NCBI GenBank assembly: GCA_035509415.1 | Contig: DATJLQ010000096.1 | Location: 24,919 to 88,918, forward strand | Length of the DNA stretch: 64,000 bases | Origin: Alphaproteobacteria bacterium | Lineage (GTDB): Bacteria > Pseudomonadota > Alphaproteobacteria > JACZXZ01 | Direction of reading: 5' to 3' | Shown here: in pieces, positions 8,252 through 61,348 of the stretch | Layout: every line of letters starts with the position of its first letter | Position numbering within the stretch: the stretch's first letter is position 1 | The notes under the pieces: model-generated | The model's input: only the letters and a program-made list of their open reading frames with translations | Database searches by the model: none | Told to the model about the DNA's origin: nothing | Made by a program: the position numbers and the translations under genes

Positions 8252-8264
8252 CGTTCGCCCCGCC

Positions 8265-28995: not shown

Positions 28996-28998
28996 CCT

Positions 28999-32988: not shown

Positions 32989-33079
32989 GTGTCCACGACG
33001 ACGGCGCTTCTCTCGAGACGGTTCTCGATCCGCGCCCAACCTGCCTAGGCCTCGACGACGCACCCCTCTTGGAAACCTC

Positions 33080-35155
33080 ATGACTTCTGGACGCACCCTG
33101 GACAATCCTCGACAGCCGAGCGAGCGCGCGGTCGATCCCGTGACGCTTCAGGTCTTTCAACAGCGCTTGATCGGCATCGTGCGCGAGATGCGCGCGACCA
33201 TGGTCCATTCCGCCTTCTCGGCCGCGATTTGCGAGCTGTTCGATCTCTCCTGCGCGCTCTTGAGCGCGCGCGGCGAGTTGATCGTCCAGTCCGAGGACAA
33301 CCCGCAGCACATTTTCCCGCTCCTCTGGTCGGCCCAGGAAGTGATGCGCCGCTACGGCAACGACATACGGCCCGACGACGTTTTCCTCCACAACGACCCC
33401 TACGAGGGCGGAACACACCTCAACGACATCGCGATCATCGTACCCTTTTTCGTCGACGGCCAGCTCGTTGCATTCCCGGTTGTGCGCGCTCATTGGGAGG
33501 ATGTCGGCGGCTCGACGCACGGCAGCATATCGGGCCAGAACCGCGAGATCTTCCAGGAAGGCCTGCGCATCCCGCTCACGCGCCTCAAGGCGAACTCGCC
33601 CGAGTTCGAGGCGTTCATGGCGCTGCTGTTCTCGAACATGCGCATTCCCAACGAGCGCCGCGGCGATTTCGACGCCATGATGGGGACTTCCGAGATCGGG
33701 CGGCGCCGGCTCGCCGAGGTCGTGGACCGCTATGGCGTGGGCCAGGTGCTGCGCTTCATGGACCGACTCCTCGACCAGGAGGAGACGCGCATGAGGGCAA
33801 AATTGAGGGCGCTTCCCGAGGGCGCTTTCACGTTCGAGAACTATCTCGATCCTCGGCCCGATCTCGGCGTGGCCCAGAAGATCGCCGTGCGCGTCGCGAT
33901 CGCGGACGGCCGCATCGAGGTTTCGTTCGACGGCTCGAGTCCCCAGATCGACGGACCCTTCAATATCGGCCCCTCGGGCGCGCCGACCGGCGTCTTTATC
34001 ATCGCGAAGTCGCTGCTCGACCCGAAAGGACCGGTCAATTCCGGGAGCTTCCGGCCCATTTCGGTCGACGCGCCGGCGGGCTCGTTCGTCAATGCCGTCT
34101 ACCCCGCTGCGGTGGGCGCCATGGGCGACGTCCGGCGGTCCTTGGAAAGCACCGTCATGGCGGCCCTGGCATCGGTCCTGCCCGACCGCGTCACCGGCGA
34201 CACGAAGGGCACGTCGAACCAGCTTTTGATCGGCGGACGCCGGCCTGGCACCGGCCATGCCTGGCTTCTTTACGAGGCGCCTGCCGGCGGTACCGGCGGC
34301 TTCGAGGGCGGCGACGGCAATTCCACCTTGCGCACATTTGCCGAGGGCGACTTCAGCGCGGTCCAGCCGGTCGAGGCGATCGAGCAGAAATTTCCGCTGC
34401 GCGTCGAGGAAGTGTGTCTGCGCGCCGATTCCGCGGGCGACGGCAAATATCGCGGCGGTCTCGGCATGCGTCGCGTGATCCGCCTTCTGGTCGAGAGCGC
34501 GTCCCTGTCGAGCGTGTCGGACAAGAACGTGGTCCCGCCTTATGGACTTTTCGGCGGCACCGGTGGTGCCCAGAACAAAATCTCGGTCGAGCGCGGCGGC
34601 AAATCGATCGCACCGTCGCGGGCGCCGGGCAAGATCTCCAACTTCCACCTGCGCAAGGACGACCGCGTCATCTTCGAGTCGAGCGGCGGCGGCGGCTATG
34701 GCGATCCGCTCGATCGCGATCCGGACGACGTCGCGCGCGACGTGAGCCTGGGATACGTCTCCGCGTCGCGGGCGCGCCAGGTCTATGGCGTCGTCGTGAG
34801 CCGCGGCAAAGCATCGGCCGCGAAGACCGGCGTCCGGCGCCGCGCGCTTCTGAACGCGCGCGTGACTTTATCGGTTGCGCTCGGCGAGGTACCGGCAAAT
34901 GCGCTCAAGCTGCCGACCGCGCTTGTCCATCCCGCGACTGCGCGCAAGGCAAACTTGCGCGCGGGCCAGATCGGCGAACTCCTTTCGGCGCGCAAGCCCG
35001 CCGCTCCCATTCGGATCGTGATCGCGACATCGGCCGGGCTCGCGCGCGGCAAGATCGTCGTCGCGAGGAGCGCGGCGCGCTTTCACGGATGGGCATCGGG
35101 CCACGGCGTGCGGTTGCGCGCGCTGCCGCGGCACGTCGATGCGTTTCAGGAGTGA
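33080..35155 (+). CDS. hyuB: hydantoinase B / oxoprolinase-family subunit (HyuB) with approx 130-aa Ala/Arg-rich C-terminal extension
   Basis: Core like the minus-strand HyuB (VFQQRLIGIVREMRATMVHSAFS...GGGGYGDPLDRDP), then extra residues ...GKIVVARSAARFHGWASGHGVRLRAL. Total 692 aa versus 605 aa for the paralog. Confidence 0.82.
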   Translation: MTSGRTLDNPRQPSERAVDPVTLQVFQQRLIGIVREMRATMVHSAFSAAICELFDLSCALLSARGELIVQSEDNPQHIFPLLWSAQEVMRRYGNDIRPDDVFLHNDPYEGGTHLNDIAIIVPFFVDGQLVAFPVVRAHWEDVGGSTHGSISGQNREIFQEGLRIPLTRLKANSPEFEAFMALLFSNMRIPNERRGDFDAMMGTSEIGRRRLAEVVDRYGVGQVLRFMDRLLDQEETRMRAKLRALPEGAFTFENYLDPRPDLGVAQKIAVRVAIADGRIEVSFDGSSPQIDGPFNIGPSGAPTGVFIIAKSLLDPKGPVNSGSFRPISVDAPAGSFVNAVYPAAVGAMGDVRRSLESTVMAALASVLPDRVTGDTKGTSNQLLIGGRRPGTGHAWLLYEAPAGGTGGFEGGDGNSTLRTFAEGDFSAVQPVEAIEQKFPLRVEEVCLRADSAGDGKYRGGLGMRRVIRLLVESASLSSVSDKNVVPPYGLFGGTGGAQNKISVERGGKSIAPSRAPGKISNFHLRKDDRVIFESSGGGGYGDPLDRDPDDVARDVSLGYVSASRARQVYGVVVSRGKASAAKTGVRRRALLNARVTLSVALGEVPANALKLPTALVHPATARKANLRAGQIGELLSARKPAAPIRIVIATSAGLARGKIVVARSAARFHGWASGHGVRLRALPRHVDAFQE

Positions 35156-35164
35156 TCGCGCGCC

Positions 35165-37222
35165 ATGCTCGTCCTCGGCATCGACATCGGCGGCACGTTC
35201 ACGGACCTGATCCTCTACGACACCGAGGCGGGGACATTCTCGGCCGGCAAAGTCCCTTCCGTACCCGGACGGCAGTGGGAAGGGCTCGCGGCCGGCCTTG
35301 CGGCACTCGACCTCGATGCGGGTCGACTCGCAAGCGTGGTGCACGGCACCACGGTCGGGACCAACGCAATCCTCGAAGGCAAGACCGCGCGCACGGCGCT
35401 CGTCACCACCAAGGGTTTCCGCGACGTGCTCGAAATCGGGCGCAGCATGCGCTTGACTCCCGGCAGCCTGTTCGACACGCGCTTCAAGCGCCCCGCGCCG
35501 CTGGTGCCGCGCAATCTGCGCCTCGAGCTCAAGGAGCGCATCGGCGCGCGCGGCGAGGTGGTGACGCCGCTCGAGCCGCCCACGCTCGAGGCGCTCGCCC
35601 GCGCGCTGCGCGCGTCGAAGACCGAGGCGGTCGCGGTCTGCCTGATCAATGCGTACGCCAACCCCGATCACGAGAAGCGCGTCGTGGATTTCCTCTCGCA
35701 CGCGAATCTCGACGCCGCAATCTATCCCTCCCACGAGATCTCTCCCGAATATCGCGAATACGAGCGGACTTCGACCACGGTCATCAACGCCGCCGTGAGC
35801 CCGATCATCGACCGATACCTCGAGGCCTTCGAGGGTACGTTGCGCGAGCGGGGCTTCGCCGGCTCGCTGTTCATCATGGCGTCCAATGGCGGCACGCTCC
35901 CGCGCCGTGTCGTGAGCCGCTCGGGCGCGCACACGATCCTTTCCGGGCCCGTGGGCGGCGTCCGGGGGGCGCTTTTGGTCGCGAAATCGATCGGCCGGTC
36001 GCGCGTGATCACGCTCGACATGGGCGGCACCAGCACCGATGTCGCCCTGATCGACGGGCACGAGCCCGAAATGGCCGACGTGACGGTGATCAACGGCATG
36101 CCCTTGCGCCTGCCTCAACTCAACATCGTGACCGTGGGCGCGGGCGGCGGAAGCCTGGCCAAGATCGACGAGGGCGGCGGGGTCGATGTGGGCCCGGAGA
36201 GCGCGGGCGCGCGTCCCGGTCCGGCCTGCTACGGCTTCGGCAATGCCACGCCGACGGTGACCGACGCGAATCTGGCGCTCGGCCGCCTGGGCGTCGAGTT
36301 GATCGGCGGCGCCATGCGCATGCAGCCCGAGCTCGCGACCGCGGCGATCGAGCGCTTGGCGGCGGCGGCCGGCGTCGAGCCCATGCACCTCGCCTCGGGC
36401 ATCGTCGAGATCGCGGTCGCGCGCATGGCGAATGCGATCCGCGAGGTCTCGGTCGAGCAAGGCGCCGACCCGCGCGGCTTCGCGCTGTTCGCCTTCGGCG
36501 GCGCGGGACCGCTGCATGGCTGCGCGGTCGCGTCCGAGCTCGGCATCGCCGAGGTGATCGTGCCGCCGTATCCCGGCCATGTCTGCGCCTATGGGCTGCT
36601 TGCCTCGGAGCTGCGCCAGGATCGCGCACGCACGTGGCTGCGCGCGTTCGCCGATGTCGACCGGAAGACGCTACGGCAGGCGCTCGAGAAGGAGGGCGAT
36701 GCGCTGCGAAAATCGGTTCGTCAGGCGGGCTGGCCCCTCGATAGGACCGACCTCCGCTACGCGCTCGATCTTCGCTATGTGGGGCAGTCCTTCGCGGTAC
36801 GGGTCGAGCTGCGCGGCCTCGCGGATGGGGACATCGAGGCGCTGCCGGCGGATTTCGGCGCGCGCCATGAGGAGCTCTACGGTCATCGCCATACGCGCGG
36901 CATCGAGATCGTGACCCTGCGCGTCACGGCGCGCGCGCCGCGAGCCTTCGGTTTCGACTTGCCGAAGGCGACACCGCCAAGCCGCTCGGGGTCGGGTCCG
37001 CGCGCGAGCGTCTCCCGCTTGCGCCGGATTTACGAGCGTGGAGCGTGGGTGGAGTGCCCGGTCGTCGATCGCGCCGATCTTTCGCCGGGCGACACGCTGG
37101 TTGGCCCCGCGATCGTCGAGGAAATCGGATCGACGACTTTCGTCGAGCGCGGATGGACGATGCGCGTCGAGCCGACTCTCGCGATGGTCCTTACGACGCG
37201 GGCCGAGACCGGGAAAGATTGA
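35165..37222 (+). CDS. hyuA: hydantoinase A / oxoprolinase-family subunit (HyuA)
   Basis: MLVLGIDIGGTFTDLILYD.... Gene order B then A; 10-nt gap after hyuB. Confidence 0.9.
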   Translation: MLVLGIDIGGTFTDLILYDTEAGTFSAGKVPSVPGRQWEGLAAGLAALDLDAGRLASVVHGTTVGTNAILEGKTARTALVTTKGFRDVLEIGRSMRLTPGSLFDTRFKRPAPLVPRNLRLELKERIGARGEVVTPLEPPTLEALARALRASKTEAVAVCLINAYANPDHEKRVVDFLSHANLDAAIYPSHEISPEYREYERTSTTVINAAVSPIIDRYLEAFEGTLRERGFAGSLFIMASNGGTLPRRVVSRSGAHTILSGPVGGVRGALLVAKSIGRSRVITLDMGGTSTDVALIDGHEPEMADVTVINGMPLRLPQLNIVTVGAGGGSLAKIDEGGGVDVGPESAGARPGPACYGFGNATPTVTDANLALGRLGVELIGGAMRMQPELATAAIERLAAAAGVEPMHLASGIVEIAVARMANAIREVSVEQGADPRGFALFAFGGAGPLHGCAVASELGIAEVIVPPYPGHVCAYGLLASELRQDRARTWLRAFADVDRKTLRQALEKEGDALRKSVRQAGWPLDRTDLRYALDLRYVGQSFAVRVELRGLADGDIEALPADFGARHEELYGHRHTRGIEIVTLRVTARAPRAFGFDLPKATPPSRSGSGPRASVSRLRRIYERGAWVECPVVDRADLSPGDTLVGPAIVEEIGSTTFVERGWTMRVEPTLAMVLTTRAETGKD

Positions 37223-37622
37223 GCGCCGCCCGCTGCCTCGCAAGTCGCGCCGGGACCCCGGTACCCGCTTTCGTGCGCGGCGCAAGTCCTCGAGGGAAAC
37301 GGTGGGCACGGCAAGGATTGAATTTGCGACCCCTTGACGTGCATCGCGCCTGTCACGGCTCCGCGCCCGATCGCTGGGCTCGGAATTCGGCGCCGCGGAG
37401 CCCTGGCAGATCGATTTTCGATCCGGTCCAGGCCCGCTTGATGCCCAGCGCCGCCGAGGCGCCATATGCAACCGTCGATCTCTCGCGCGATTTCGCGCTC
37501 CCTTGGTCGTGAGCGGTAGGCGACCCATGCACCGGTCATGCCCAAGGGGAGTGTCGAACTCCCGCGTTCCGCGCCTTCGTCCTCTTCGCCGACGGCCGAT
37601 TCAGGCTGGGCCGAAGGCGATG

Positions 37623-39221
37623 TCAGCCGAGGAAACTCTCGACCGTCCTGATCGCGCCGTCGAGCGCCACGCCCTCCTCGTCCCTGAGGGCGGCCTCGCG
37701 CAGGCGGCGCGACCACTCGGCCGCGTCTGGACGCCCGACAAGACGGAGCGAGGTCGTGAGCACGCGCTCGAATTTCCCCTGGCCGCGCGCCGCCGTGTCG
37801 GAATAACCCTTCACCAGACGCCGGCAGCGCAAAAGCTCGACCGCGAGCGCATAATCCCGAGGCGCCGTCGCCATCACGGTGTCGAGCCAGCGCTTCCAAT
37901 GGGCGCGTTCGCGCGCGTGGCGCAACGTGCCGCGGCGCCAGCGCTTGAGGCCGCCGAGCGAATACAGGATGAGGAACCAGCCGAGCGTCCCGGTGCGCAC
38001 GCGCCGCCCGCGGTTGACCGACCGGTCGAGTGCGCGCATCAATCGGGGCCGGGCCTCGATGAAGCGGCCGAGCAAGGCGGGCAGCGTGCCGCATACCTCT
38101 TCCATGCGCGGATGCATGAACTCGGTCAGGTGCAGGACCTGGTCCGGTGCCGCGCCAACGTCGCGCCGCACGCGCGCGAACCGGCTCGCGCGGGTCTTGA
38201 GGTCGGCGACGCGGATCACGTCGTCATAGGCCATCGCGACGGCGACGTATTTCGCGGCCTCGCGCGTGAGAGCCAAGGCGTCCGCTCCCGGCGCCTGCAT
38301 CCGGTCGAGGGCAAGCATCGGCTCGAGCGTATCGAGATACTCCGCGCCATAGGCGATATCTTGGAAGTCGACGACGCGGCGCAGCCCGGCTGCGAGCATG
38401 TCATGAACGGATGCCGGAAAGCGCTCGGCAGCTCGCGCGACGAGGGCATCGAAGCTCGGATGCCCGACGGGCGCGAGGGTCGCCGCCGCCCGGCGCTCCG
38501 CGGCCGGATCGGGAGTCTCGAACGTCTGATCGCGGCCCGAGCGCTCGGCACGCGCCGCCTCGAAGCCGAGAGCGAAAGCGCGCAAGCTCGCTTCGACGCC
38601 GACGCCGGTCGCGCGGATGGTCTCCTCGAACGAGGCGCGCTCGAATTGCGTCGCCCCTGAACCCGCGAGGGCCCCGAACATGACCGCGGAGATGACGCTC
38701 CCCGCGCGCGTCGCGAGCGCGGCCATGTCGAAGGCGAAGACGCGCTTCGCCGCCTCGCGCGCCGCGCGGCCGACGGCCGCCGGATCGCCGATCCCGTCGC
38801 CGGGCACCATTTTCTCCTGGACCGCGTAGGCGCGGTGGGTCGAGACGATGAGCGTGGTGCGATCCGGTGTCACGTAGCCGCGCAGGATCGCGCGGCCAGC
38901 TTCCATGAGCTCGGCGCCGATCACCACGTCGACGTCGCCCGGCGCCGGCATGAGCGAGAGCACCGGCCGCCGCGTGCCCAAGCCGCCCGCGGGCATCGGG
39001 ACCATCTCGACGTAATAGACCGTGGCGCCCGTGCGCTGCGCGACGCCCGGCACGGAAGTCGCCTGGACGATCCAGCCCGCGCGTTCGGCGAGTGCCACGA
39101 TCCAGTCCATCAGCACGCCGCCGCCCTGGCCGCCGAGGGCCAAGATCGCGATCGTGAGGGGACGCGTCGGATTGAGCCCGACCCGCCCTCGTTCCCTGGT
39201 CGCAACGTGGATTTCGTTCAT
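37623..39221 (-). CDS. iorB: indolepyruvate:ferredoxin oxidoreductase beta subunit
   Basis: 532 aa; LTIAILALGGQGGGVLMDWIV... is the IorB/2-oxoacid:ferredoxin oxidoreductase gamma-like fold. Confidence 0.8.
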   Translation of the reverse strand: MNEIHVATRERGRVGLNPTRPLTIAILALGGQGGGVLMDWIVALAERAGWIVQATSVPGVAQRTGATVYYVEMVPMPAGGLGTRRPVLSLMPAPGDVDVVIGAELMEAGRAILRGYVTPDRTTLIVSTHRAYAVQEKMVPGDGIGDPAAVGRAAREAAKRVFAFDMAALATRAGSVISAVMFGALAGSGATQFERASFEETIRATGVGVEASLRAFALGFEAARAERSGRDQTFETPDPAAERRAAATLAPVGHPSFDALVARAAERFPASVHDMLAAGLRRVVDFQDIAYGAEYLDTLEPMLALDRMQAPGADALALTREAAKYVAVAMAYDDVIRVADLKTRASRFARVRRDVGAAPDQVLHLTEFMHPRMEEVCGTLPALLGRFIEARPRLMRALDRSVNRGRRVRTGTLGWFLILYSLGGLKRWRRGTLRHARERAHWKRWLDTVMATAPRDYALAVELLRCRRLVKGYSDTAARGQGKFERVLTTSLRLVGRPDAAEWSRRLREAALRDEEGVALDGAIRTVESFLG

Positions 39222-39228
39222 CGCCGGC

Positions 39229-41424
39229 TCAAGCGAAGTCGAGTGCGCGGCGCGCGCGACGGCGCTGGAGGAAGCCGATCGCGCCCCCGCGCAGCCGGGC
39301 GAGGACGCGGTCGAGCCAGGACGGATTGTAAACGATGTCGGCGCGATAGAAGGACGGGCATAGCACCGCCGCCTCCGCCACCTCGCCGCAATTGCCGCAG
39401 CCGACGCAGCTCTCGTCGATCGCGGCGACCGGGTCGTCCTTCAAGGGATCGTCGGTCCGCTTCACCGAAAGGGACGGGCAGCCCGAGAGGCGGATGCAGG
39501 CGTGATCGCCCGTGCATACATCCTCGTCGACGCCGAAGCGTTGGCGCACCGCGCGCGCGCCTTCCTTGACCGCCTTGTTGAAGAGCGGCCGCACCCGACG
39601 CTGCTTGTTGAGCATGCATTCGGAGGAGGCGACGATGACCTTGGGTCCCGGCGCCTTCGAGGTGAGCGCCTCCCGCAGCGTATCGCGCATCTTGGCGACG
39701 TCGTAAGTGCGGTCGATCTGGCGCACCCAATCGACGCCGACCCCTTTGACCGCACGCGCGATCGAGTGGGCCGTCGAGCGCGAGCGATTCTCGGCGCGCG
39801 ACGAGAGGACATCCTGCCCGCCGGTCGCGGCCGAGTAGTTGTTGTCGATCACCAGGGTCACGCCGTCGTGCTTGTTGAAGACGGCATTGCCGATACCCGA
39901 GGTGAGCCCGTTGTGCCAGAAGCCGCCATCGCCCACGACCGAGATCGAGCGCTTGCCGGCCACGACGTTGAAGGCCGAGGCCGAGGCGGGGCCGAGGCCG
40001 TAGCCCATGGTCGTGGTGCCGATGTTGAAGGGCGGCAGCGCCGAGAAAATATGGCAGCCGATGTCGCCAGACACGTGGTGAGGGCCGAGCTCGCGCTCGA
40101 CCAGTTTCATGGCGGCGAACACCGGCCGCTCGGGGCAGCCGACGCAGAAGCCCGGCGGCCGGCCCGGCACCGCCGCTGCGAGGGCCGCGATGCTCTCGCT
40201 CGGGGCCGCGTCGGGCGCGTTCGGCGCACGGAGCGAAGGGGCAAGCAGGCTCGGCCCGCGCTCGGCGAGGAATGCGCGCGCGCCCGCCGCCACGGCCTCC
40301 ACCGTGTATTCGCCCGCCATCGGCAGCACGTCCTTGCCGACGATCGCGGCCCCAACGCCCGCGCGGCGCAGAATCTTGTGGAGCGACTGCTCGATGAAAT
40401 CGGGCTGACCCTCCTCGACCAGCAGCACGGCCTTCTTGCCGCGGCAGAAGTCGGCGAGCTCGTCGTCGATCAAGGGGTAGGTGACGTTCATGACGTAGAG
40501 CGGGAGGCGCGTGGTGCCCCACACGTCGGCGAGGCCCATGGTCTGGAGTGCTCGCAGCACGGTGTTGTACATGCCGCCCTGGAGCACGACGCCGAGCTCC
40601 TCGACGTCGCCCGGGAAGGTCTCGTTGAGCCGGTGGCGCCGCACATAGTCGACGGCGGCGGGCCAACGCTGCTCGATTTTTTCCTTCTCGTGGAGGTAGG
40701 TCGCGGGCGGCAGCACGACGCGGCTCGTGTCCCGCCGCGGCGTCTCCATCGCCTCTCTGAGCGTGAAGCGCGGCGGCCGGTTGTCGCGCGCCGAGAAGCT
40801 TCCATGCACGTGGCAGCCGCGGATGCGCACCTCGAGCATCACCGGCGTGTGCGACGCCTCGGAGAGCTCGAAGCCGTGCTCCACCGCGCGCACGATCGAT
40901 TCGAGGTTGGGGCGCGGATCGAGCAGCCAGATCTGGGACTTCATCGCGAAGGCGTGGCTGCGCTCCTGCATGATCGAGGAGCCTTCGCCGTAATCCTCGC
41001 CCACGATGATGAGCGCACCCCCCTCGACCCCGCCCGAGGCGAGGTTGGCGAGCGCGTCCGATGCGACGTTGGTGCCGACCGGCGACTTGAAGGCGACCGC
41101 ACCCCGGATCGGGTACATGACCGAAGCCGACAGCATCGCCGCCGCCGCGGCCTCGTTGGCGCTCGATTCGAAGTGGACGCCGAGCTCGCCCAAAATCTCC
41201 TGGGCGTCCGACAGCACGTCCATCAAATGCGAGATGGGGGCGCCCTGGTAACCGCCCACATAGCCCACCCCCGCCTCGAGCAGCGCCTTGGTGATCGCGA
41301 GGATGCCTTCGCCGTGGAACTCGGCGCCCGCGCCGAGCTTCAGGTCTGCGATCTCGCGCTTGAAGGAACGTTCCGCCACGCGGGACTCCGTCCGCTGCGC
41401 CGGCCGCGCGACTTTCGCACCCAC
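39229..41424 (-). CDS. iorA: indolepyruvate:ferredoxin oxidoreductase alpha subunit (TPP and 4Fe-4S)
   Basis: 731 aa; TPP motif GDGGFWHNG and a ferredoxin-like cysteine cluster CVGCGNCGEVAEAAVLCP. The 900-aa track ORF extension is antisense to the VOC gene. Confidence 0.85.
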   Translation of the reverse strand: MGAKVARPAQRTESRVAERSFKREIADLKLGAGAEFHGEGILAITKALLEAGVGYVGGYQGAPISHLMDVLSDAQEILGELGVHFESSANEAAAAAMLSASVMYPIRGAVAFKSPVGTNVASDALANLASGGVEGGALIIVGEDYGEGSSIMQERSHAFAMKSQIWLLDPRPNLESIVRAVEHGFELSEASHTPVMLEVRIRGCHVHGSFSARDNRPPRFTLREAMETPRRDTSRVVLPPATYLHEKEKIEQRWPAAVDYVRRHRLNETFPGDVEELGVVLQGGMYNTVLRALQTMGLADVWGTTRLPLYVMNVTYPLIDDELADFCRGKKAVLLVEEGQPDFIEQSLHKILRRAGVGAAIVGKDVLPMAGEYTVEAVAAGARAFLAERGPSLLAPSLRAPNAPDAAPSESIAALAAAVPGRPPGFCVGCPERPVFAAMKLVERELGPHHVSGDIGCHIFSALPPFNIGTTTMGYGLGPASASAFNVVAGKRSISVVGDGGFWHNGLTSGIGNAVFNKHDGVTLVIDNNYSAATGGQDVLSSRAENRSRSTAHSIARAVKGVGVDWVRQIDRTYDVAKMRDTLREALTSKAPGPKVIVASSECMLNKQRRVRPLFNKAVKEGARAVRQRFGVDEDVCTGDHACIRLSGCPSLSVKRTDDPLKDDPVAAIDESCVGCGNCGEVAEAAVLCPSFYRADIVYNPSWLDRVLARLRGGAIGFLQRRRARRALDFA

Positions 41425-41450
41425 CGGCGCATTTGACTCTAGAAACGGAA

Positions 41451-41466
41451 ATTTGATATGTCAAAT
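41451..41466. promoter_or_regulatory. inverted repeat ATTTGA-TATG-TCAAAT (plus upstream TTTGAC half-site) in divergent iorA / VOC intergenic region; candidate operator
   Basis: Read from the sequence. AT-rich island with three TTTGAY/RTCAAA half-sites between 41431 and 41470. Confidence 0.3.
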
Positions 41467-41545
41467 ATCTCCCGGACGCGGCGGCTGCGGGCCGATGCGC
41501 GTCCCCGGCCTCGGTCGGCGGCCCGCGCGAGTATGGAGACGGCCA

Positions 41546-41947
41546 ATGGCGAAGCTTCGTCACATCGCGATCCAGGTGCCGGACCTCGAGAAGGCGGCCG
41601 GGTTCTACGAAACGGCGCTCGAGCTCAAGCGCGTCGCCCAGACCGAAAGCCCGGTCGGCAACGCGATCATGCTGTCCGACGGCGTGATGAACCTCACCCT
41701 CCTCAATTTCCCCGAGGGCACCAAGGGCGGCATCAACGGGCCCGGCTGGGCGGGGCTGCATCATTTCGGCTTCGTGGTCGAGGACGCCGAGGCGACCGCG
41801 AAGAAGATCGAGCATCTGGGCGGCCGCTTCTTCATGCGCCTCCCCGACTCCTATCCGGGGGTCGACGCCGAGACCAAGTACAAGGACCCGCTCGGCATCG
41901 TGTTCGACGTATCGGAGCACGACTGGACCCAGGCCAAGGAGCCGTGA
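41546..41947 (+). CDS. VOC / glyoxalase-bleomycin-resistance-dioxygenase superfamily protein
   Basis: 133 aa; MAKLRHIAIQVPDLEKAAGFYETALELK... is the classic VOC betaalphabetabetabeta N-terminus. Confidence 0.75.
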   Translation: MAKLRHIAIQVPDLEKAAGFYETALELKRVAQTESPVGNAIMLSDGVMNLTLLNFPEGTKGGINGPGWAGLHHFGFVVEDAEATAKKIEHLGGRFFMRLPDSYPGVDAETKYKDPLGIVFDVSEHDWTQAKEP

Positions 41948-42597
41948 CCGGCGCGACGCCAGAGGGCGGGCCGATGCGCGGCAAGACGGTGTCGGAATTC
42001 GTGATTCCGGCGCGCGTCGGGCACGCGCTTGTCGTGCCCAAGGGCCACGTCTTGCGCATCCATCAGATCGAAGGCGGGCAGGTCGGCGACTGCGCCTTCT
42101 TCAACGCGAACGACACGCGCGAGTGGTTCCATGTCGGCCAGAGCTGGGCCCTCAACGTCATGCTCGGCACCGGCACGAGCAAGGGCTTCAAGCATTTCTA
42201 TTCGAAACCGCCGCGCGAGAACGTGATGCTCACGACGGTCGAGGACACGCTCGGCAACCATTGGGGCAACATGGGCGGACGCTGCTCGACGCGCCTCTAC
42301 GCGCTGCGCGACGGCATCTCCGGTCACCGCTCGTGCCAGGAGAATCTCGCCGAAGCGCTCCAGCCTTTCGGCCTCACGGGCGACGACGTGGGCGACATCT
42401 TCAACGTTTTCATGAATGTCGAGCTCGACGCCGCGGGTGGGTTCCGGATCCGGCCGACCGAGGTCGGCCCCGACGATTACATCGACTTGCGCGCCGAGAT
42501 GGACGTGCTTGCCGCGATCTCCGCGTGCCCGGCCGACGCCAATGCCACCAACGGCGGCCGCTGCAAGCCGCTCGGCATCAAGGTCTTCGCGTCGTGA
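41944..42597 (+). CDS. DUF1989-family protein (urea-carboxylase-associated-like)
   Basis: Matches the DUF1989 pattern (IPARVGHALVVPKGHVLRIHQIEGGQVGDCAFFNAND...LRAEMDVLAAISACPAD). GTG start at 41944 overlaps the VOC stop (GTGA). Alternative ATG at 41974. Confidence 0.7.
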   Translation: MTGATPEGGPMRGKTVSEFVIPARVGHALVVPKGHVLRIHQIEGGQVGDCAFFNANDTREWFHVGQSWALNVMLGTGTSKGFKHFYSKPPRENVMLTTVEDTLGNHWGNMGGRCSTRLYALRDGISGHRSCQENLAEALQPFGLTGDDVGDIFNVFMNVELDAAGGFRIRPTEVGPDDYIDLRAEMDVLAAISACPADANATNGGRCKPLGIKVFAS

Positions 42598-42628
42598 TCG
42601 GGCGCCGCGGCTGAGAACGCGGCGAGCG

Positions 42629-43801
42629 ATGCGCATCCTCGCGATCCGCGAGAAGACCGTCCCGCTCGCCTCCTCGTTGCGGAACGCGAATATCGGCTTC
42701 GGCGCCATGACCGCGAGCGCCCTCGTCGTCGCAACCGACGCGGTGCGCGAGGGAAAGCCGGTCAACGGCCTCGCCTTCGATTCGATCGGACGCTACGGCC
42801 ATGGCGGCCTGCTGCGCGAGCGCTTCATTCCGCGCCTCTTGGCGGCGAAGCCCGAGGATTACGCCGACGCGCGCGGCGACAATATCGATCCCGCGAAGCT
42901 CTGGGCGATCGCGATGCAGGACGAGAAGCCCGGCGGCCACGGCGAGCGGCCGGGGGCCCTGGGCCTGATCGACGCGGCGGCTTGGGACATCGTAGCCAAG
43001 CTTGAGGGGAAGCCGCTGTGGCGCGTCCTCGCCGAGCGCTTCGGCGCGGACGGCATGGCACCTGACGGCACGGTCGCGGTATACGCGAGCGGCGGCCATT
43101 ATCGCCCGAGCGGCGACCTCGACGGGCTCAAGGACGAGATCCGCCGCTACGTCGATCTCGGCCACATGCGCATCAAGATCAAGATCGGCGGCGCGCCGCT
43201 CGCGGCCGACCTGAAGCGCGTCGAGGCGGCGCTCGCGATCCTCGGCACGGGCTCGGCGCTCGCCCTCGATTGCAACGGAACCTTCGATCGCGCGCGCGCC
43301 TTCGAGTACCTCGACGCTCTCGCGCCCTATGGGCTCGCCTGGCTCGAGGAGCCGGTCGACCCGCTCGATTTCGAGCTTCACCGCGAGCTCGCGGCGACGA
43401 CCCCGATGCCGCTTGCGACCGGCGAAAACATCTTCTCCGTCGCCGACGCGCGCAATCTCTTGCGTCACGGTGGCTTGAGGCCGGCGCGCGATTGGCTGCA
43501 GATGGACATTTCGCTCAGCTACGGCATCGTCGAGTATCTGCGCATGCTCGAAGTCATGGCGGCGCATGGATGGTCGCGCCGCCGCGCCTTGCCGCACGCG
43601 GGCCATTTGCTCGCGCTCCACGCGGCCGCGGGCCTCGGCCTCGGCGGCCATGAATCGGCCCCCGACCCGACCCATCTCATCGGCGGCTTTCCGGACGGCG
43701 TTTCGGTCGAACACGGCACCGTGCGCGCGCCCGAAGATCCCGGCGTCGGCATCGAACGCAAGGCCAATCTCTACGCCGTGTTCCGCGATCTCCTCGATTG
43801 A
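42629..43801 (+). CDS. enolase-superfamily enzyme (mandelate racemase / muconate lactonizing enzyme family)
   Basis: 390 aa; metal-ligand region LALDCNGTF...LEEP.... Start at MRILAIREK. Confidence 0.78.
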   Translation: MRILAIREKTVPLASSLRNANIGFGAMTASALVVATDAVREGKPVNGLAFDSIGRYGHGGLLRERFIPRLLAAKPEDYADARGDNIDPAKLWAIAMQDEKPGGHGERPGALGLIDAAAWDIVAKLEGKPLWRVLAERFGADGMAPDGTVAVYASGGHYRPSGDLDGLKDEIRRYVDLGHMRIKIKIGGAPLAADLKRVEAALAILGTGSALALDCNGTFDRARAFEYLDALAPYGLAWLEEPVDPLDFELHRELAATTPMPLATGENIFSVADARNLLRHGGLRPARDWLQMDISLSYGIVEYLRMLEVMAAHGWSRRRALPHAGHLLALHAAAGLGLGGHESAPDPTHLIGGFPDGVSVEHGTVRAPEDPGVGIERKANLYAVFRDLLD

Positions 43802-44400
43802 GGCGGGCGTGCGGACTGCCGGCGCGCGGGCGGGCCCAGGATCATGTCGCACACGGTCTCGATCAGCGCCCCGATGTCGCGCGTATCGCCGAGGCGCCGG
43901 TTGATCACGAAGCCGTCATAGGCCATGAGCAGGAGATGGGCGAGAAGATCGCCCTCAAGGAAGTGCTGTCGCGCGCGCGGTACGATGGTCTCGAGAATCA
44001 CGGTGAGACGGCGCTCTGTGACGCGGAGAAGATCGTCGGGCTTGCCCTCGCGCGGGTCGGCCGATGCGAGCGCCTCCATGAGGCTGTTGGCGAGCCCGGT
44101 ATTGCGCGCCGGGATATCGCGCCAGATGCATAGGAGGAAGAGACGCAGCTTCTCGCGCGGCGCGCGCTTGCCCGCGAGCGAGCGCTCGAGCCGGTCGATA
44201 TGACCGAGGAGCCAGGGCCGGTAGACCTGATAGAGGAGCGCGAGCTTCGAGGGAAAATAGGAATAGATGCTGCCGACCCCGACCTTGGTCGCCTTCGCGA
44301 TGTCGGCGAGCGTCGTCTCGTGATAGCCGTGCGCGGAGAACAACGCATCCGCGTTGCGGACGATCGCGTCGTGTACCGATCTTTTCTTGACCTGGACCAA
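43771..44400 (-). CDS. TetR-family transcriptional regulator
   Basis: N-terminal HTH TTLADIAKATKVGVGSIYSYFPSKLALL. Confidence 0.85.
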   Translation of the reverse strand: MVQVKKRSVHDAIVRNADALFSAHGYHETTLADIAKATKVGVGSIYSYFPSKLALLYQVYRPWLLGHIDRLERSLAGKRAPREKLRLFLLCIWRDIPARNTGLANSLMEALASADPREGKPDDLLRVTERRLTVILETIVPRARQHFLEGDLLAHLLLMAYDGFVINRRLGDTRDIGALIETVCDMILGPPARRQSARPPQSRRSRNTA

Positions 44401-44503
44401 GCCGACCCTCGCGCGCTCAGACGATCGCGCGCCGCGGCCGCGGCACCGGCGTGCGCCTCGTTCCCGGCCCGTCCCGGCCCCTGTCGGGTTCCCGATCCAT
44501 GGC

Positions 44504-45031
44504 CTAGAACGGAATCGACATTGCCTGGTGGACGCCGTCGCAGTCGATCAGATCGACGCGCTTCGATGCGATCTTGAAGCCGCCGTCCGCGAGCCGAAGT
44601 ATATGACTGTAGCGGCCGCTGAACACGCGCCGGCTTTCCTCCCGAAATTCGGACATCAGGAACGCGGACTCGACCGTGCACTCGCGCCGTGCCGGCTCGA
44701 GCGCGGTCACGTCCACGTTGGTGACGAGGTGGGTGGTGCGCGGCATGGGTGCGAGCACGTGGGCGCGCGGGTGCGTGAGGCGGCGCACGCGCATCGCAAG
44801 AAGCGGCAGGTCCTCGTAGACAATGGACGCGACCGCGCGCGGATCGGTCTGACCCGGCCGGCTCGGGACCCAATAGACCGCGTCCGGCGCGAAGAGAGCG
44901 AGCCATTCGTCGAACCGGCCGGCGTCGAGAAGGCGCGCCTCGAGGAACAGAAAGCGCTCGATCTCGTGGCGCCGCTCGGCGCCGACAGTCATCGGATCGT
45001 CGACCGGCGCATGGTCGCGCAGCGAGCTCAT
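44504..45031 (-). CDS. ring-hydroxylating oxygenase beta subunit
   Basis: 175 aa; RHEIERFLFLEARLLDAGRFDEWLALFAPDAVYWVP is a typical small subunit. ATGA overlap with the alpha stop. Confidence 0.8.
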   Translation of the reverse strand: MSSLRDHAPVDDPMTVGAERRHEIERFLFLEARLLDAGRFDEWLALFAPDAVYWVPSRPGQTDPRAVASIVYEDLPLLAMRVRRLTHPRAHVLAPMPRTTHLVTNVDVTALEPARRECTVESAFLMSEFREESRRVFSGRYSHILRLADGGFKIASKRVDLIDCDGVHQAMSIPF

Positions 45032-46380
45032 TGGGCAGCCTGCCTGACGCCGGCGCCGGCCAGCCGCTCGTCCACCATGAAGCGGAGCCAGGCCGCGAAC
45101 TGCACCCGGGTCGGAAGCTCGCTCGCCGTCGCAATCCGGAGCCCCGGACCGAAGTCCCGATCGCGTCCAAAGCCGCGTTCGACGTCGATCCAGTCGGCCG
45201 CGCCGGAGGTCAGTCCGCTCTGGCAGCGCGCGAACATCTCGACGTCGTCCGAAAAGATCATCGAGGCGGGCGAGCCGAGATTGGTGAGGAACCGCACCGC
45301 GCGGTGGAAGATGCCATCGGGCGCGCCCGCGAGCCGGAAGCAGTAACTCGTGACGAGGGTACGATCGGCCGCGAGCGGATGCACGACCCGGAGCTGGTGG
45401 TATTGCGCGTTCACGCTGATGTTGGGGTAGATCAGATTGTTGAACCGATCGAGGCCGAGGATCTCGGCCGCGCGCACCTCGCCGTGGCGGCGCGCGAGGC
45501 ACGCGCGGTATTCGGCGCGCACCGCATCCTCCTCGGTGGGGGCGAGGATGCCGCTCTTGTAAAAGCCGCTCATGTAGCTGTGGCCCGCCTCCGATCCCAC
45601 CAGCTCGACGTTCTCCCATTCGCGGCGCGTGAAGTTGTTCGCGAACAGCATCTCGCGCGTCTGGTCGTCGTCGAGTGCCGAGCCCTGGCGCGGCGCCGCG
45701 CGCGCGGTCGCGACCGAGGATTCGTGCACGAAGCTCGGATGGAAAACGTCGTTCGCATTCTCCATGTGCATTTTCCAGTTGCCCGGGTATTCGAGCGTGA
45801 AAACGCTTTCGGCGATCTCGATCTCGCCGCCCGGCGCGCGCTCGATCAAATTGTCGAACGCGTCGGTCATGGTGCCGAGGTGCTCGCCGAGCGACGGGCC
45901 GTCCGGTGCGAGACTCGCGAACACGAAACCGCGATAGCTCGCGACGCGCGGCGCCTGGGCGAGACGGTTGCGCGGCTCCTCCAGGCTAAAGCCCTCGGGA
46001 TAACTCTCGCGGTGCGGTACGGCTTCGAGGCTGCCGTCGCCGCGGAACGACCAGCCGTGATAAGGACAAACGAAGGATGTGCGCTTGCCGCTCGGGCTCG
46101 CGCAGATACGCGCGCCGCGATGCGCGCATCGATTGTGGAGCGCGTGCAGCGTGCCGTCCTTGTGGCGCGTGACCAGCACTTCGTAACGGCCGAGCCGGCT
46201 GCGCACGAAGTCGCCCGGCGCCTTGAGCTGGCTCTCGTGCGCGACGTAGAGCCACGCGCGCCCGAAGATGCGGTCCATCTCGAGTTCGAAGATCGCCGGG
46301 TCGATGTAGAGGCGCCGGTGGACGCGATCGGGCTGAACCAGCGCGCGAATCTCCGCCGCACCGATCTCGGTCCCTGCCAT
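45028..46380 (-). CDS. Rieske non-heme iron ring-hydroxylating oxygenase, alpha subunit (second paralog)
   Basis: Rieske CAHRG...CPYHGW; catalytic domain NANDVFHPSFVHE. Confidence 0.9.
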   Translation of the reverse strand: MAGTEIGAAEIRALVQPDRVHRRLYIDPAIFELEMDRIFGRAWLYVAHESQLKAPGDFVRSRLGRYEVLVTRHKDGTLHALHNRCAHRGARICASPSGKRTSFVCPYHGWSFRGDGSLEAVPHRESYPEGFSLEEPRNRLAQAPRVASYRGFVFASLAPDGPSLGEHLGTMTDAFDNLIERAPGGEIEIAESVFTLEYPGNWKMHMENANDVFHPSFVHESSVATARAAPRQGSALDDDQTREMLFANNFTRREWENVELVGSEAGHSYMSGFYKSGILAPTEEDAVRAEYRACLARRHGEVRAAEILGLDRFNNLIYPNISVNAQYHQLRVVHPLAADRTLVTSYCFRLAGAPDGIFHRAVRFLTNLGSPASMIFSDDVEMFARCQSGLTSGAADWIDVERGFGRDRDFGPGLRIATASELPTRVQFAAWLRFMVDERLAGAGVRQAAQ

Positions 46381-46665
46381 CCGCCCTCCCCTCGCGGCCC
46401 GCGCGCGCTATCCGGCAACCGTGAATTCGCTCCCGGGCCGCATCGGACGAGTATTCCGAACCGTCGGCGTTTTGTCAAAGTCGAATCTTGTTCGGTTATG
46501 AGGAAGGCGATAAGATGGCCGCGTGAGAGGCTAACGCCGCGCCGGCGGCGCCCGAATCCCGCTCATTTCGACCTCGCGGGATCGACGGGTCCAGGCGCGG
46601 CGGCCAGGGGGAGAGATGGCAGCACGCGTGCCGTGCCACGGCGCCGTCATGAGCGGTGCGTGGCC

Positions 46666-47520: not shown

Positions 47521-47527
47521 GCGAAAG

Positions 47528-61344: not shown

Positions 61345-61348
61345 GGCA

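Follow-up and report, generated by a model that had tools for sequence, protein, structure and literature searches.

The locus studied here raises the question of why a 2-oxoacid:ferredoxin oxidoreductase (IorAB) should be encoded back to back with a VOC protein, a DUF1989 protein and an enolase-superfamily protein, close to Rieske oxygenase genes, and of what pathway such a combination might serve. The window, that is the whole stretch of DNA analysed, was 64 kb long. A reading made from the letters and open reading frames of this stretch (hereafter the sequence-only reading) had named six genes, all of which were called correctly as judged by Pfam, and the divergent arrangement that it described, with iorAB on the minus strand and the VOC, DUF1989 and enolase genes on the plus strand, was borne out (Table 1). 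For the comparison with lower-GC loci, gene calling based on GC3 was unreliable, and tblastn and public gene calls were used instead.

Table 1. Features of the iorAB-VOC locus and its surroundings (positions in the window)
Feature	Position	Strand	Basis or details
Hydantoinase A/B pairs	27178-31302 and 32924-37222		
iorB/iadB-like gene, beta subunit of 2-oxoacid:ferredoxin oxidoreductase	37623-39221	-	Pfam POR and DUF6537
iorA/iadA-like gene, alpha subunit	39229-41379	-	Pfam TPP_enzyme_C; C-terminal Cys-rich stretch with weak, sub-cut-off Fer4
Predicted sigma-70-type iorA promoter	41436-41464	-	-35 TTGACA (41464-41459), 17-nt spacer, -10 TAGAGT (41441-41436)
VOC/glyoxalase-fold protein, small, one domain	41546-41947	+	133 aa; Pfam Glyoxalase
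DUF1989 protein, single domain	41974-42597	+	207 aa; Pfam, E 7.6e-40
Enolase-superfamily protein, relative of D-tartrate dehydratase (TarD-like paralogue)	42629-43801	+	Pfam MR_MLE_C, PDB matches
Enolase catalytic residues aligned with Bll6730			K183/K185 (KxK), D214, E240, E266, D293, H323
TetR-family regulator	43771-44400	-	Pfam
Rieske oxygenase, beta subunit	44504-45031	-	Pfam
Rieske oxygenase, alpha subunit, IadD family	45028-46380	-	Pfam; best PDB match 7YLS/8H2T
Conserved footprint TTGTCAAAGtCGAATcTTGTTCGGTTATGAG	46472-46502	+	Core CGAA-N5-TTCGG; overlaps divergent promoters
Three-subunit Mo hydroxylase	46666-50465	+	Public gene calls, domain matches
Mo hydroxylase, FAD subunit	46666-47520	+	
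Mo hydroxylase, 2x[2Fe-2S] subunit	47528-48073	+	
Mo hydroxylase, MoCo subunit	48066-50465	+	
Solute-binding protein of branched-chain-type ABC transporter	50487-51674	+	Peripla_BP_6
Permease and ATPase genes of the same ABC transporter	after 51674, up to ~55023		

Two gene starts were revised. That of iorA most likely lies at 41379 rather than at 41424, because the public gene call is 716 aa long and the IorA homologues measure 715-721 aa (nearly all 715-716 among the about 120 matches listed); the region between iorA and the VOC gene is therefore 166 bp long, not 121 bp. The DUF1989 gene most likely starts at ATG 41974, 26 nt past the VOC stop, since this start is favoured by the public gene call and by the homologue lengths (204-221 aa, nearly all 204-210, among the matches listed). 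The GTGA coupling of the VOC and DUF1989 genes that had been read earlier would require the in-frame GTG at 41944 to be the start. The three plus-strand genes are co-oriented with gaps of 26 and 31 nt, no terminator-like site was detected between them by terminator scanning, and they are arranged as one operon (41546-43801). The TetR gene converges on the enolase gene with an overlap of 31 bp, the same overlap being seen in a related locus (L092), and next to iorAB stands a convergent hyuA gene. Searching positions 37000-47000 with Rfam gave sub-threshold noise only, with no riboswitch or other RNA.

The proposed check of whether DUF1989, VOC and enolase co-occur gave a positive result, as the trio recurs as a unit. 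Among 80 species-level loci carrying a DUF1989 orthologue, VOC was present in 35 (directly upstream of DUF1989 in 26) and the enolase in 29, each time together with VOC; Mo hydroxylase orthologues were found in 22 and the Rieske alpha subunit in 14. The trio is one arm of a larger conserved, uncharacterised cluster, the core of which consists of VOC, a TarD-like enolase, IadDE-family Rieske alpha and beta subunits, TetR, a quinoline-oxidoreductase-like Mo hydroxylase and a TRAP or ABC carboxylate transporter. DUF1989, inserted after VOC, is optional: Beijerinckia (L090) and L092 have the core genes in the order of the window but neither DUF1989 nor IorAB, and VOC adjoins the enolase directly upstream in loci without DUF1989. 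The commonest extra neighbours were the TRAP genes DctPQM. Carriers of the cluster include dozens of species of Alphaproteobacteria, some members of the Burkholderiales and, among cultured bacteria, at least one Beijerinckia sp. (GCA_900104955.1). A literature search on DUF1989, D-tartrate dehydratase and the enzyme combinations of the cluster found no description of it, and no NCBIfam equivalog reached its cut-off with VOC, DUF1989, the enolase, either Rieske subunit or the Mo hydroxylase.

The enolase had been taken for a cycloisomerase-type enzyme, which had to be revised. Its closest solved relatives (E 1e-128 to 1e-137) are D-tartrate dehydratase Bll6730 (TarD; PDB 2DW6, 2DW7, 1TZZ) and 4KEM, which we take to be members of the mandelate-racemase subgroup; identity was 53.5% to Bll6730 and 53-55% over the full length across the TarD structures and 4KEM. 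Bll6730 is said to act on D-tartrate with a kcat/KM of roughly 1e5 M-1 s-1. The window enolase shares with these proteins the KxK motif, the three Mg ligands and the His-Asp dyad, whereas the stretches next to the motifs are changed (FNSNGRY to FDSIGRY, GGYYYPG to GGHYRP, PHGGHQMSLN to PHAGHLLALH, and GGNESYPD to GGHEAAPD). Pocket-lining differences separate every aligned cluster-type enolase from canonical TarD, and in a neighbour-joining tree of all 39 sequences the cluster-type enolases fell outside the canonical TarD clade. The genomic context also differs, canonical TarD genes having LysR and TctC binding-protein genes as neighbours and the window enolase those for VOC, Rieske oxygenase and Mo hydroxylase. 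Judged from these alignments, the enolase is a D-tartrate-dehydratase-like protein with its catalytic residues kept and its pocket systematically altered.

DUF1989 proteins, described by the sequence-only reading as uncharacterised apart from an association with urea carboxylase, include TMAO demethylase and carboxyguanidine deiminase as characterised members (PMC12560246, PMC11271267), and the family has a cyclophilin-like fold (PMC12560246). The window protein scored 136.7 bits against PF09347 (cut-off 27) and matched PDB entries 3DI4, 3ORU and those of TMAO demethylase (9Q59/9Q5A). In the orthologue alignment D39, C104, C121 and C185 were invariant and H118 and D188 nearly invariant; the spacing of the three Cys residues matches that of C263, C279 and C343 in Tdm, and the residues of the predicted Zn site are kept. 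The fold family, the Cys3 Zn site and the neighbouring Asp/His are common to the window protein, Tdm and CgdAB. Tdm, however, has DUF1989 fused to GCV_T in a protein of ~760-800 aa, whereas the window protein has 207 aa and lacks GCV_T (70 bits against the TMAO demethylase model NF053776, cut-off 1100), and CgdAB has two paralogous DUF1989 subunits encoded beside urea/guanidine carboxylase and allophanate hydrolase, whereas the window has one gene. In the VOC protein, residues H6, N49, H72/H73 and D121 were invariant in 39 sequences (the window protein and 38 orthologues), a H/N/H/D site that could fit an epimerase or a dioxygenase.

The Rieske alpha subunit matched IadD with an E value of 3.9e-90; its identity was 37% to Bradyrhizobium IadD, 71% to the L092 protein and 58% to that of Beijerinckia, and for the beta subunit the values were 39% (IadE) and 49% (protein of the Beijerinckia cluster). 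The window alpha subunit is a paralogue of IadD; in L099 the identities to IadD and IadE reach 71-72%. Two Rieske alpha/beta pairs are present in the window, both reductase-less, and their earlier description as such stood: neither the 64 kb nor the 8.8 kb past its right end encodes an FNR- or PDR-type reductase or a ferredoxin. For the large subunit of the Mo hydroxylase the best PDB match was quinoline 2-oxidoreductase (1T3Q, E 1.5e-141). The solute-binding protein matched IAA-binding IadK2 (7YLT) so weakly (E 1.6e-13) that it is uninformative on a link to IAA. Just past the window lies an aryl-CoA hydroxylase/reductase cluster.

On the other strand, IorA shares 77% identity with IadA, and IorB 64% with IadB, of the complete Bradyrhizobium iad locus L093, in which the neighbours of iadAB are IadC-J and MarR, and at this identity the pair is orthologous to IadAB. 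The two genes make up a unit by themselves, preceded by a predicted sigma-70-like promoter of their own. Among NCBIfam models only the subfamily model NF006179 was passed (702 bits for IorB, cut-off 348), the archaeal-type IOR equivalogs TIGR03336/TIGR03334 being missed (alpha 281.6 vs 650.9, beta 35.8 vs 205.8), and a PDB search found no solved structure of IorA. The genes iadA and iadB have been reported to mark iad-like operons (PMC9613470).

Searching the window by tblastn revealed no homologue of IadC, and none of IadF, IadG, IadH, IadI, IadJ or the MarR repressor IadR. Because IadC and IadF-J are missing, the window is, by its gene content, not an iad locus. What it has in common with the iad loci of Variovorax, Achromobacter and Bradyrhizobium are the IadA/IadB orthologues, the IadD/E-related Rieske oxygenase and the branched-chain-type ABC transporter. 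The regulator is a TetR protein in the window and a MarR protein (IadR) in iad loci, and VOC, DUF1989, the TarD-like enolase and the Mo hydroxylase are absent from the iad gene content of L093, L099 and the published descriptions. Elsewhere the two gene sets approach each other: in L018 and L022, DUF1989 and Mo hydroxylase genes stand in one gene string with orthologues of IadG, IadH and IadI (65-75% identical), and iad side-chain/ring-opening genes lie near DUF1989 in L018, L022 and L079. In anaerobic indoleacetate degradation (iaa, Aromatoleum/Azoarcus) and in quinoline degradation (Qor and Rieske), a Mo hydroxylase oxidises the carbon beside the ring nitrogen, and the next step falls to a hydantoinase-like lactam hydrolase or to a Rieske oxygenase. 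The likeness of these pathways to the window is one of enzyme families only (Mo hydroxylase, hydantoinase A/B, Rieske), and the window differs from the iaa pathway in having no B12 mutase or CoA-transferase genes. In one related locus (L016), hydantoinase A/B genes lie inside the operon.

We propose, with a probability of roughly 0.55, that the region belongs to an island for the degradation of aromatic or N-heteroaromatic carboxylic acids, in which the enzymes would have the following roles. Once imported, the acid would be oxidised by the Rieske oxygenase and the Mo hydroxylase. The enolase would take the proton alpha to the carboxylate, with elimination of a beta-hydroxyl or epimerisation to follow, on a substrate presumably bulkier and less polar than D-tartrate, and DUF1989, as a Zn enzyme, would cleave a C-N bond. 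On the basis of its chemistry, IorAB would convert an aryl-2-oxoacid to an acyl-CoA by oxidative decarboxylation; the reduced ferredoxin would be a by-product, and the acyl-CoA may feed the aryl-CoA pathway encoded ~20 kb away. As a guess, an indole-3-acetate-like acid is the leading candidate for the substrate. The co-occurrence counts, the pocket signature and clade of the enolase, the kept Zn-site residues of DUF1989, the orthology of IorAB and IadAB, IadD as the best solved Rieske relative, the recurrence in Burkholderiales, the Iad genes of L018 and L022, the aryl-CoA cluster past the window and the predicted iorA promoter were counted in favour; counted against were the finding of IorAB with the cluster in two lineages only, the stand-alone orthologues, the lack of IadC and IadF-J in the window, the 37% identity of the Rieske alpha subunit to IadD, and the distance of the solute-binding protein from IadK2.

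A part for IorAB in this pathway has to be weighed against the possibility, tentative but the most serious of the alternatives, that its position is incidental, IorAB being the general aromatic/branched 2-oxoacid oxidoreductase of the lineage and sharing only the intergenic region with the VOC operon. The pair is highly conserved, with 76-79% identity across roughly 120 homologues in Rhizobiales and Stellaceae, and 76 of the 80 DUF1989 loci lack it. Near-identical iorAB pairs, with orthologues 78% identical, stand alone among unrelated neighbours in L094, L095 and L098. The predicted promoter of its own and the convergent hyuA flank point the same way. The adjacency could thus be incidental, given that IorAB accompanies the VOC/enolase cluster in only two lineages among about 80 and has stand-alone orthologues. 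This is opposed by the second of these co-occurrences, an independent one in Burkholderiales MAGs, where IorA and IorB are found with the same set of VOC, enolase, Rieske, Mo hydroxylase and DUF1989, and by the documented association of IadAB with oxygenases of the IadDE family in iad loci. The trio itself might simply perform known functions of its families, either D-tartrate utilisation by TarD or a CgdAB-like release of nitrogen from guanidine or urea; we consider this very improbable. The 53.5% identity to Bll6730 with all catalytic residues kept and the weak matches of DUF1989 to the UAAP models TIGR03424/03425 would fit it, but the latter scores were far under the cut-offs (97.4 vs 284.7 and 69.5 vs 205.95), and canonical TarD has the LysR and TctC context and another pocket signature. 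Plain D-tartrate utilisation was rejected as the leading reading on this context and signature. No urea/guanidine carboxylase, allophanate hydrolase or second DUF1989 subunit was found in the 64-kb window, and a CgdAB or urea-carboxylase system was rejected because both the carboxylase and the partner subunit are missing.

It had also been suggested that IorAB serves the oxygenases, and in this form it would oxidise a 2-oxoacid and reduce ferredoxin, or pass electrons through its own Fe-S centres, and so drive both Rieske oxygenases. We know of no description of an oxygenase that is driven by such a 2-oxoacid:ferredoxin oxidoreductase. The lack of reductase and ferredoxin genes in the window and the adjoining 8.8 kb is in keeping with the idea, as are the gene orders of iad loci: iadAB lies directly upstream of iadC and iadDE in L093, and the Stellaceae iad locus L099 has no iadC, its iadB stop overlapping the iadD start. 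Moreover, a Burkholderiales locus (L086) has IorAB with two Rieske pairs and no reductase. Against it, most copies of the VOC/enolase/Rieske cluster lack both IorAB and a reductase, so that host reductases evidently serve, and there is no ferredoxin gene to bridge IorAB and the Rieske enzymes. IadC and NADH are sufficient for IadDE in vitro (PMC10374108), iadAB is dispensable in that iadC-K2 without it converted IAA fully to anthranilate (PMC12633357), and iadDE alone was slowly active in E. coli (PMC9613470). The near-identical IorAB pairs that stand alone in other genomes also speak against it. We regard this role of IorAB as unlikely. Slightly less likely again is the wider proposal that in reductase-less clusters (the window, L086 and L099) Rieske oxygenases of the IadDE family receive their electrons physiologically from an IadAB-type enzyme; if true, oxidation of an aryl-2-oxoacid downstream would drive the pathway's own first oxygenation, replacing NAD(P)H.

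With the degradation island as the preferred reading, a widespread and unstudied catabolic gene cluster is now defined, which is a lead for enzyme discovery and not a new kind of system. It holds three enzyme subfamilies without an assigned reaction, namely the TarD-like enolase with the remodelled pocket, the stand-alone DUF1989 protein and the small VOC protein. The iadAB genes of auxin-degradation loci, long without an explanation, are now tied to a second cluster type, which gives them two candidate roles, conversion of aryl-2-oxoacids to acyl-CoA or electron supply to Rieske oxygenases. If the substrate is an indole-acetate-type acid, a further aerobic route of auxin turnover would exist outside plant-associated genera.

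The region between iorA and the VOC gene had been described as AT-rich and as carrying a TTTGAY-repeat operator for the TetR protein. Its overall GC is 0.64-0.68; only a core of 45 bp (41429-41473, GC 0.36) is AT-rich, and the remaining 72 bp have 81% GC. The palindrome ATTTGA-TATG-TCAAAT (41451-41466) is real, being the sole exact match in 64 kb with none arising in 100 shuffles, and its arms reach 9 nt with one mismatch (41448-41469). A third copy, ATTTGAC, lies at 41431-41437 on the plus strand, and three of the 18 TTTGAY sites of the window fall within 36 bp. The predicted iorA promoter matches 10 of 12 consensus positions and is the only such site in the 7.4 kb scanned; its -35 hexamer and the palindrome's right arm coincide, and a similar TTGACA-17-TAGATT was read by eye upstream of iadA in L093. 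It is possible that TTGACT within 41431-41437 is the -35 hexamer of a plus-strand VOC promoter with TGaTATGTC as extended -10, a reading that fell short of the promoter-scan criteria. The palindrome was absent from all related loci by exact and then relaxed searching and by reading the regions upstream of iorA orthologues; among all loci compared it was confined to the source organism's own contigs. It may be an operator of some other regulator. The proposed TTTGAY-repeat operator overlaps promoter hexamers, and its palindrome is not conserved; TetR orthologues, found in L022, L024, L041, L090 and L092, adjoin another site, that at 46472-46502. There the CGAA-N5-TTCGG site is conserved beside TetR orthologues in five loci, as no other sequence is, and is a candidate for the TetR operator.

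Profile searches gave Pfam matches for every gene named in the sequence-only reading, indicating that all of them are real. IorA was 716 aa in the public gene call and about 120 homologues were 715–721 aa, nearly all 715–716; for these reasons, its start was set at 41379, leaving an intergenic region of 166 bp before the VOC gene. This region had been described as AT-rich, which holds for a 45-bp core (41429–41473, 36% GC) but not for the whole, with 64–68% GC; 1-kb windows of the stretch, which is part of a 144,777-bp metagenomic contig (ENA ERZ27256608 k141_4122665), had 62–73% GC. A GTGA overlap of the VOC and DUF1989 genes had also been proposed. An in-frame GTG is present at 41944, but the public call and the lengths of the homologues listed (204–221 aa, nearly all 204–210) favor the ATG at 41974, 26 nt downstream of the VOC stop codon. 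The gaps within the VOC-DUF1989-enolase trio are thus 26 and 31 nt, and a scan of the trio found no terminator-like or internal promoter-like site; the three genes look like a single operon.

Features of the cluster and of neighboring modules (window positions unless a locus is named)
Feature	Position	Strand	Remarks
Hydantoinase A/B pair	27178-31302	-	Divergent from second Rieske pair; adjoins spermidine-type ABC transporter
Second Rieske alpha/beta pair	30992-32988	+	
Hydantoinase A/B pair	32924-37222	+	Directly downstream of second Rieske pair, same strand
IorB-like	37623-39221	-	Pfam POR, DUF6537
IorA-like	39229 (3′ end) to 41379 (revised start)	-	Pfam TPP_enzyme_C, weak Fer4 match
VOC	41546-41947	+	Pfam
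DUF1989	41974 (revised ATG start)-42597	+	Pfam
Enolase	42629-43801	+	Pfam MR_MLE_C
TetR	43771-44400	-	Pfam
Rieske beta	44504-45031	-	Pfam
Rieske alpha	45028-46380	-	Pfam
NicX-family protein	within 56065-62176		PF26233 in public record; no match in Pfam search here
CoxG	57145-57714		In 56065-62176 module
Second FAD/FeS/Mo hydroxylase	up to 61344		Followed by alpha/beta-hydrolase esterase
Second TetR	62173-62793	-	After alpha/beta-hydrolase esterase
Aryl-CoA pathway cluster (L100, same contig, past right end)	L100 556-8329 (approximately window 64465-72238)		MarR, SDR, enoyl-CoA hydratase (NF006107), acyl-CoA dehydrogenase, benzoate-CoA-ligase-family enzyme, RidA-like, 775-aa protein

Co-occurrence was surveyed in 80 loci carrying a DUF1989 orthologue (58–78% identity, one genome per species), mostly from alphaproteobacterial MAGs with some from Burkholderiales and Dehalococcoidia, by searching their 10-kb flanks with the window proteins. 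The trio does recur: VOC was found anywhere in the flanks of 35 loci and directly upstream of DUF1989 in 26, and enolase was found in 29, VOC being present every time. The Mo-hydroxylase large subunit was detected in 22, hydantoinase A in 17 and the Rieske alpha subunit in 14. Among the 51 loci with full flanks, VOC and enolase occurred together in 22, accompanied by the Mo hydroxylase or Rieske in 18. The commonest extra neighbors were TRAP DctPQM genes, which points to a carboxylate substrate. Seen from the enolase side, the trio is not the core. In a Beijerinckia sp. (L090) and a JGI contig (L092), VOC is followed directly by enolase, and Rieske alpha/beta, TetR, Mo hydroxylase and a TRAP or ABC transporter are also carried, with neither DUF1989 nor IorAB; the layout of L092 is exactly that of the window, including the 31-bp convergent overlap of the enolase and TetR genes. 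DUF1989 is therefore not obligatory, being inserted behind VOC in some loci only.

A second, separate context for this DUF1989 orthogroup is provided by HyuA-HyuB-DUF1989 strings without VOC. In these loci (L040, L046, L047, L049, L050, L055, L057, L061 and others), DUF1989 (65–71% identity) lies directly downstream of HyuA-HyuB, which are approximately 40% and 30% identical to the window's pair, and neither VOC nor enolase is present. A Zn alcohol-dehydrogenase-family gene recurs there (15 of the loci retrieved, e.g. L050). In another locus, L016, a HyuA-HyuB pair lies between DUF1989 and enolase on one strand.

The closest solved relatives of the enolase were 4KEM (E = 2.5e-137, 55% identity) and Bll6730 (E = 1.1e-128, 53.5% identity), the D-tartrate dehydratase of Bradyrhizobium japonicum. 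The catalytic set is intact, with KxK K183/K185, Mg ligands D214, E240 and E266, and dyad D293/H323. By these residues we take the enzyme to belong to the mandelate-racemase subgroup, of dehydratase or racemase type, and the earlier label "cycloisomerase-type" was abandoned. On plasmids of cultured bacteria, the surroundings of canonical TarD-like genes are simple: LysR, a TctC binding protein and TarD. When the window enolase was aligned with 34 related-locus homologues and four canonical enzymes, the cluster-type enolases (those of the VOC, Rieske and Mo-hydroxylase context) and the canonical ones formed separate clades in a neighbor-joining tree. In the cluster-type proteins shown, the residues flanking the catalytic motifs changed from canonical FNSNGRY, GGYYYPG, PHGGHQMSLN and GGNESYPD to cluster-type FDSIGRY, GGHYRP, PHAGHLLALH and GGHEAAPD, hydrophobic residues or His replacing polar residues. 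We infer that the reaction type is retained in the cluster-type enzyme, which would abstract the proton alpha to a carboxylate from another substrate of lower polarity.

DUF1989 proteins had been regarded as uncharacterised apart from a link with urea carboxylase; however, TMAO demethylase (Tdm), which has a DUF1989 domain with a Cys3 Zn site, and carboxyguanidine deiminase CgdAB are characterised members (PMC12560246, PMC11271267). The window protein matched the 3DI4, 3ORU and Tdm structures. In 27 orthologues, D39, C104, C121 and C185 were invariant and H118 and D188 nearly so, with the spacing of Tdm D198, C263, H276, C279, C343 and D346, suggesting a Zn-dependent C-N cleaving enzyme. Assignment as Tdm or CgdAB itself was rejected: the protein consists of one domain (207 aa), has neither a partner subunit nor a neighboring carboxylase gene, and its NCBIfam scores for the Tdm/CgdAB models were far under the cut-offs. 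Plain D-tartrate or guanidine functions, recalling Bll6730 and CgdAB, are very improbable in view of the altered enolase flanks and these scores. The VOC protein is one domain of 133 aa. Its invariant residues H6, N49, H72/H73 and D121 occupy the sites of the metal ligands in glyoxalase I. This H/N/H/D pattern resembles the H/Q/H/E ligand set of methylmalonyl-CoA epimerase; as an alternative to an epimerase-like role, the protein may be a small dioxygenase.

The best solved relative of the Rieske alpha subunit was 7YLS/8H2T (E = 3.9e-90), presumably the IadD of the IadD/E complex. IadD/E is the Rieske oxygenase that opens indole-3-acetate (IAA) degradation in Variovorax (PMC10374108), and iad loci start with iadA and iadB, the COG4231/COG1014 "indolepyruvate ferredoxin oxidoreductase" genes that have been described as exclusive markers of iad-like operons (PMC9613470). 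IorA and IorB of the window showed 77% and 64% identity to IadA and IadB of Bradyrhizobium L093, a full iad set (MarR, IadG, H, I, F, A, B, C, D, E, J), and by this measure are clear orthologues of them. The window as an iad locus was nevertheless rejected: with 37% and 39% identity, its Rieske alpha and beta subunits are paralogous to IadD and IadE, and IadC, IadF–J and MarR are all missing. The window oxygenase is an orthologue of the cluster-type oxygenases (71% to L092, 58% to Beijerinckia). L018 and L022 have Mo-hydroxylase and DUF1989 genes with an acyl-CoA ligase gene and genes for orthologues of IadG, IadH and IadI (65–75%) downstream of them on the same strand; VOC, enolase, TetR and Rieske beta adjoin this string. 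The cluster, presumably for catabolism of aromatic acids, is widespread and uncharacterised; it is related to iad loci, is not categorically new, and is a good lead for enzyme discovery. Our results largely confirm the observation made in the sequence-only reading and partly support its interpretation.

Two alternatives concern IorAB. Its adjacency to the cluster may be incidental, since IorA was found in only 4 of the 80 loci and orthologues of the pair also stand alone among unrelated neighbors (L094, L095, L098). Others lie within iad loci (L093, L099). A third setting, with the VOC/enolase/Rieske/Mo-hydroxylase/DUF1989 set, is seen in the window and independently in Burkholderiales MAGs, where genes for LysR, an isochorismatase-family protein, TRAP components, IorB and two paralogous IorA proteins are also part of the set; incidental adjacency is considered rather unlikely. 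The other alternative, that IorAB donates electrons to the Rieske oxygenases, was proposed because these lack a reductase. This lack was borne out: no FNR-/PDR-type reductase, Rieske-type ferredoxin or small ferredoxin gene was found in the window by profiles, motif scan or IadC tblastn, and no reductase or ferredoxin gene was found in the 8.8 kb past its right end or in the homologous clusters L086, L090 and L092. In iad loci, iadC and iadDE come directly after iadAB. The Stellaceae MAG locus L099 (GCA_050729815.1, 10001–19432), judged by its genes a true iad auxin locus (IadA 78%, IadB 63%, IadD 71%, IadE 72%, IadG 72%, IadH 50%, IadI 72% and IadJ 57% versus Bradyrhizobium), has no iadC reductase gene, and its iadB stop overlaps the iadD start, so that oxidoreductase and oxygenase are translationally coupled with no reductase between. 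However, IadC and NADH are enough in vitro (PMC10374108), the nine genes iadC-K2 without iadAB complete the conversion of IAA to anthranilate (PMC12633357), and iadDE work by themselves in E. coli (PMC9613470). Moreover, IorAB and a reductase are both missing from most copies of the cluster, and no ferredoxin gene is nearby. An electron-donor role is therefore regarded as improbable.

In the Burkholderiales MAG locus L086 (13602–19206), two tandem IorA paralogues (59% and 51% to window IorA) precede a single IorB, and all three lie downstream of TRAP DctPQM; nearly all of this 19.5-kb contig is a cluster of VOC, enolase, Mo-hydroxylase, two Rieske pairs, isochorismatase and DUF1989.

We favor a catabolic role for IorAB. 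From the observed cluster architecture, family assignments, orthology and conserved residues, the pathway would begin with import of a carboxylated aromatic or N-heteroaromatic acid, which the IadDE-family oxygenase and the Mo hydroxylase (best solved relative, quinoline 2-oxidoreductase) would oxidise before VOC, DUF1989 and the TarD-like enzyme act on it. IorAB would convert a resulting aryl-2-oxoacid, which could be the product of an enolase-type dehydration or an arylglyoxylate such as isatinate, to an acyl-CoA for the aryl-CoA pathway encoded nearby. The best guess at the substrate is an IAA-like compound, with a probability of about 0.25. In the aryl-CoA cluster, the 775-aa protein scored above the cut-off (1342 versus 1078 bits) of the NCBIfam equivalog for bifunctional salicylyl-CoA 5-hydroxylase/oxidoreductase, a family that we take to include 2-aminobenzoyl-CoA monooxygenase/reductase.

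For regulation, a TTTGAY-repeat operator had been proposed between iorA and VOC. The palindrome ATTTGA-TATG-TCAAAT (41451–41466) is real, being the sole exact match in the window and appearing in 0 of 100 shuffles; TTTGAY occurs at 18 sites in the window, three of them within 36 bp. Its right arm, however, is the −35 hexamer of a predicted minus-strand sigma-70-like iorA promoter (TTGACA 41464–41459, 17-nt spacer, TAGAGT 41441–41436, 10/12), the only one found in the 7.4 kb scanned, and the −10 hexamer overlaps the supposed third half-site. At least in part, then, the TTTGAC repeats represent promoter hexamers. The promoter, approximately 50 nt upstream of 41379, also argues for that IorA start, and a similar TTGACA-17-TAGATT precedes iadA in L093. 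The palindrome may also serve as an operator, although it was found in none of the related loci searched.

Loci with TetR orthologues share a site, (T)CAAAg-CGAAt-N4-gTTCGGTTATGAG, located between the Rieske and Mo-hydroxylase genes in the window (46472–46502) and L092, and upstream of VOC in L024, L041 and L090. In the window, the motif alone is statistically unremarkable; because of its conservation rather than its rarity, the 46472–46502 site is a better candidate TetR operator than the palindrome. When the spacers of the window and L092 were aligned, it was one of two conserved blocks, the rest having diverged: 46472–46502 (TTGTCAAAGtCGAATcTTGTTCGGTTATGAG), the candidate operator, and 46450–46461 (AGTATTCCGAAC), which holds the −10 hexamer of a predicted minus-strand promoter. 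Other short AT-rich palindromic patches (e.g. GTGTTTCAAATGTTGAAACAC and TGTTCAATATTGTTGAACA) were seen at 11201–11254 and 31132–31172, which are intergenic beside IclR or oxygenase genes and probably operators of other regulators, and at 62597–62637, inside the second TetR gene.

Elsewhere in the window, 56065–62176 holds a second N-heterocycle module and 27178–37222 two hydantoinase/oxoprolinase A/B pairs. An ADP-forming acyl-CoA synthetase (CoA_binding, Succ_CoA_lig and ATP-grasp_5 domains) and an acyl-CoA dehydrogenase are encoded at 6050–8500 and 3690–5030, approximately 30 kb from iorAB; in archaea, synthetases of this type are partners of IOR.
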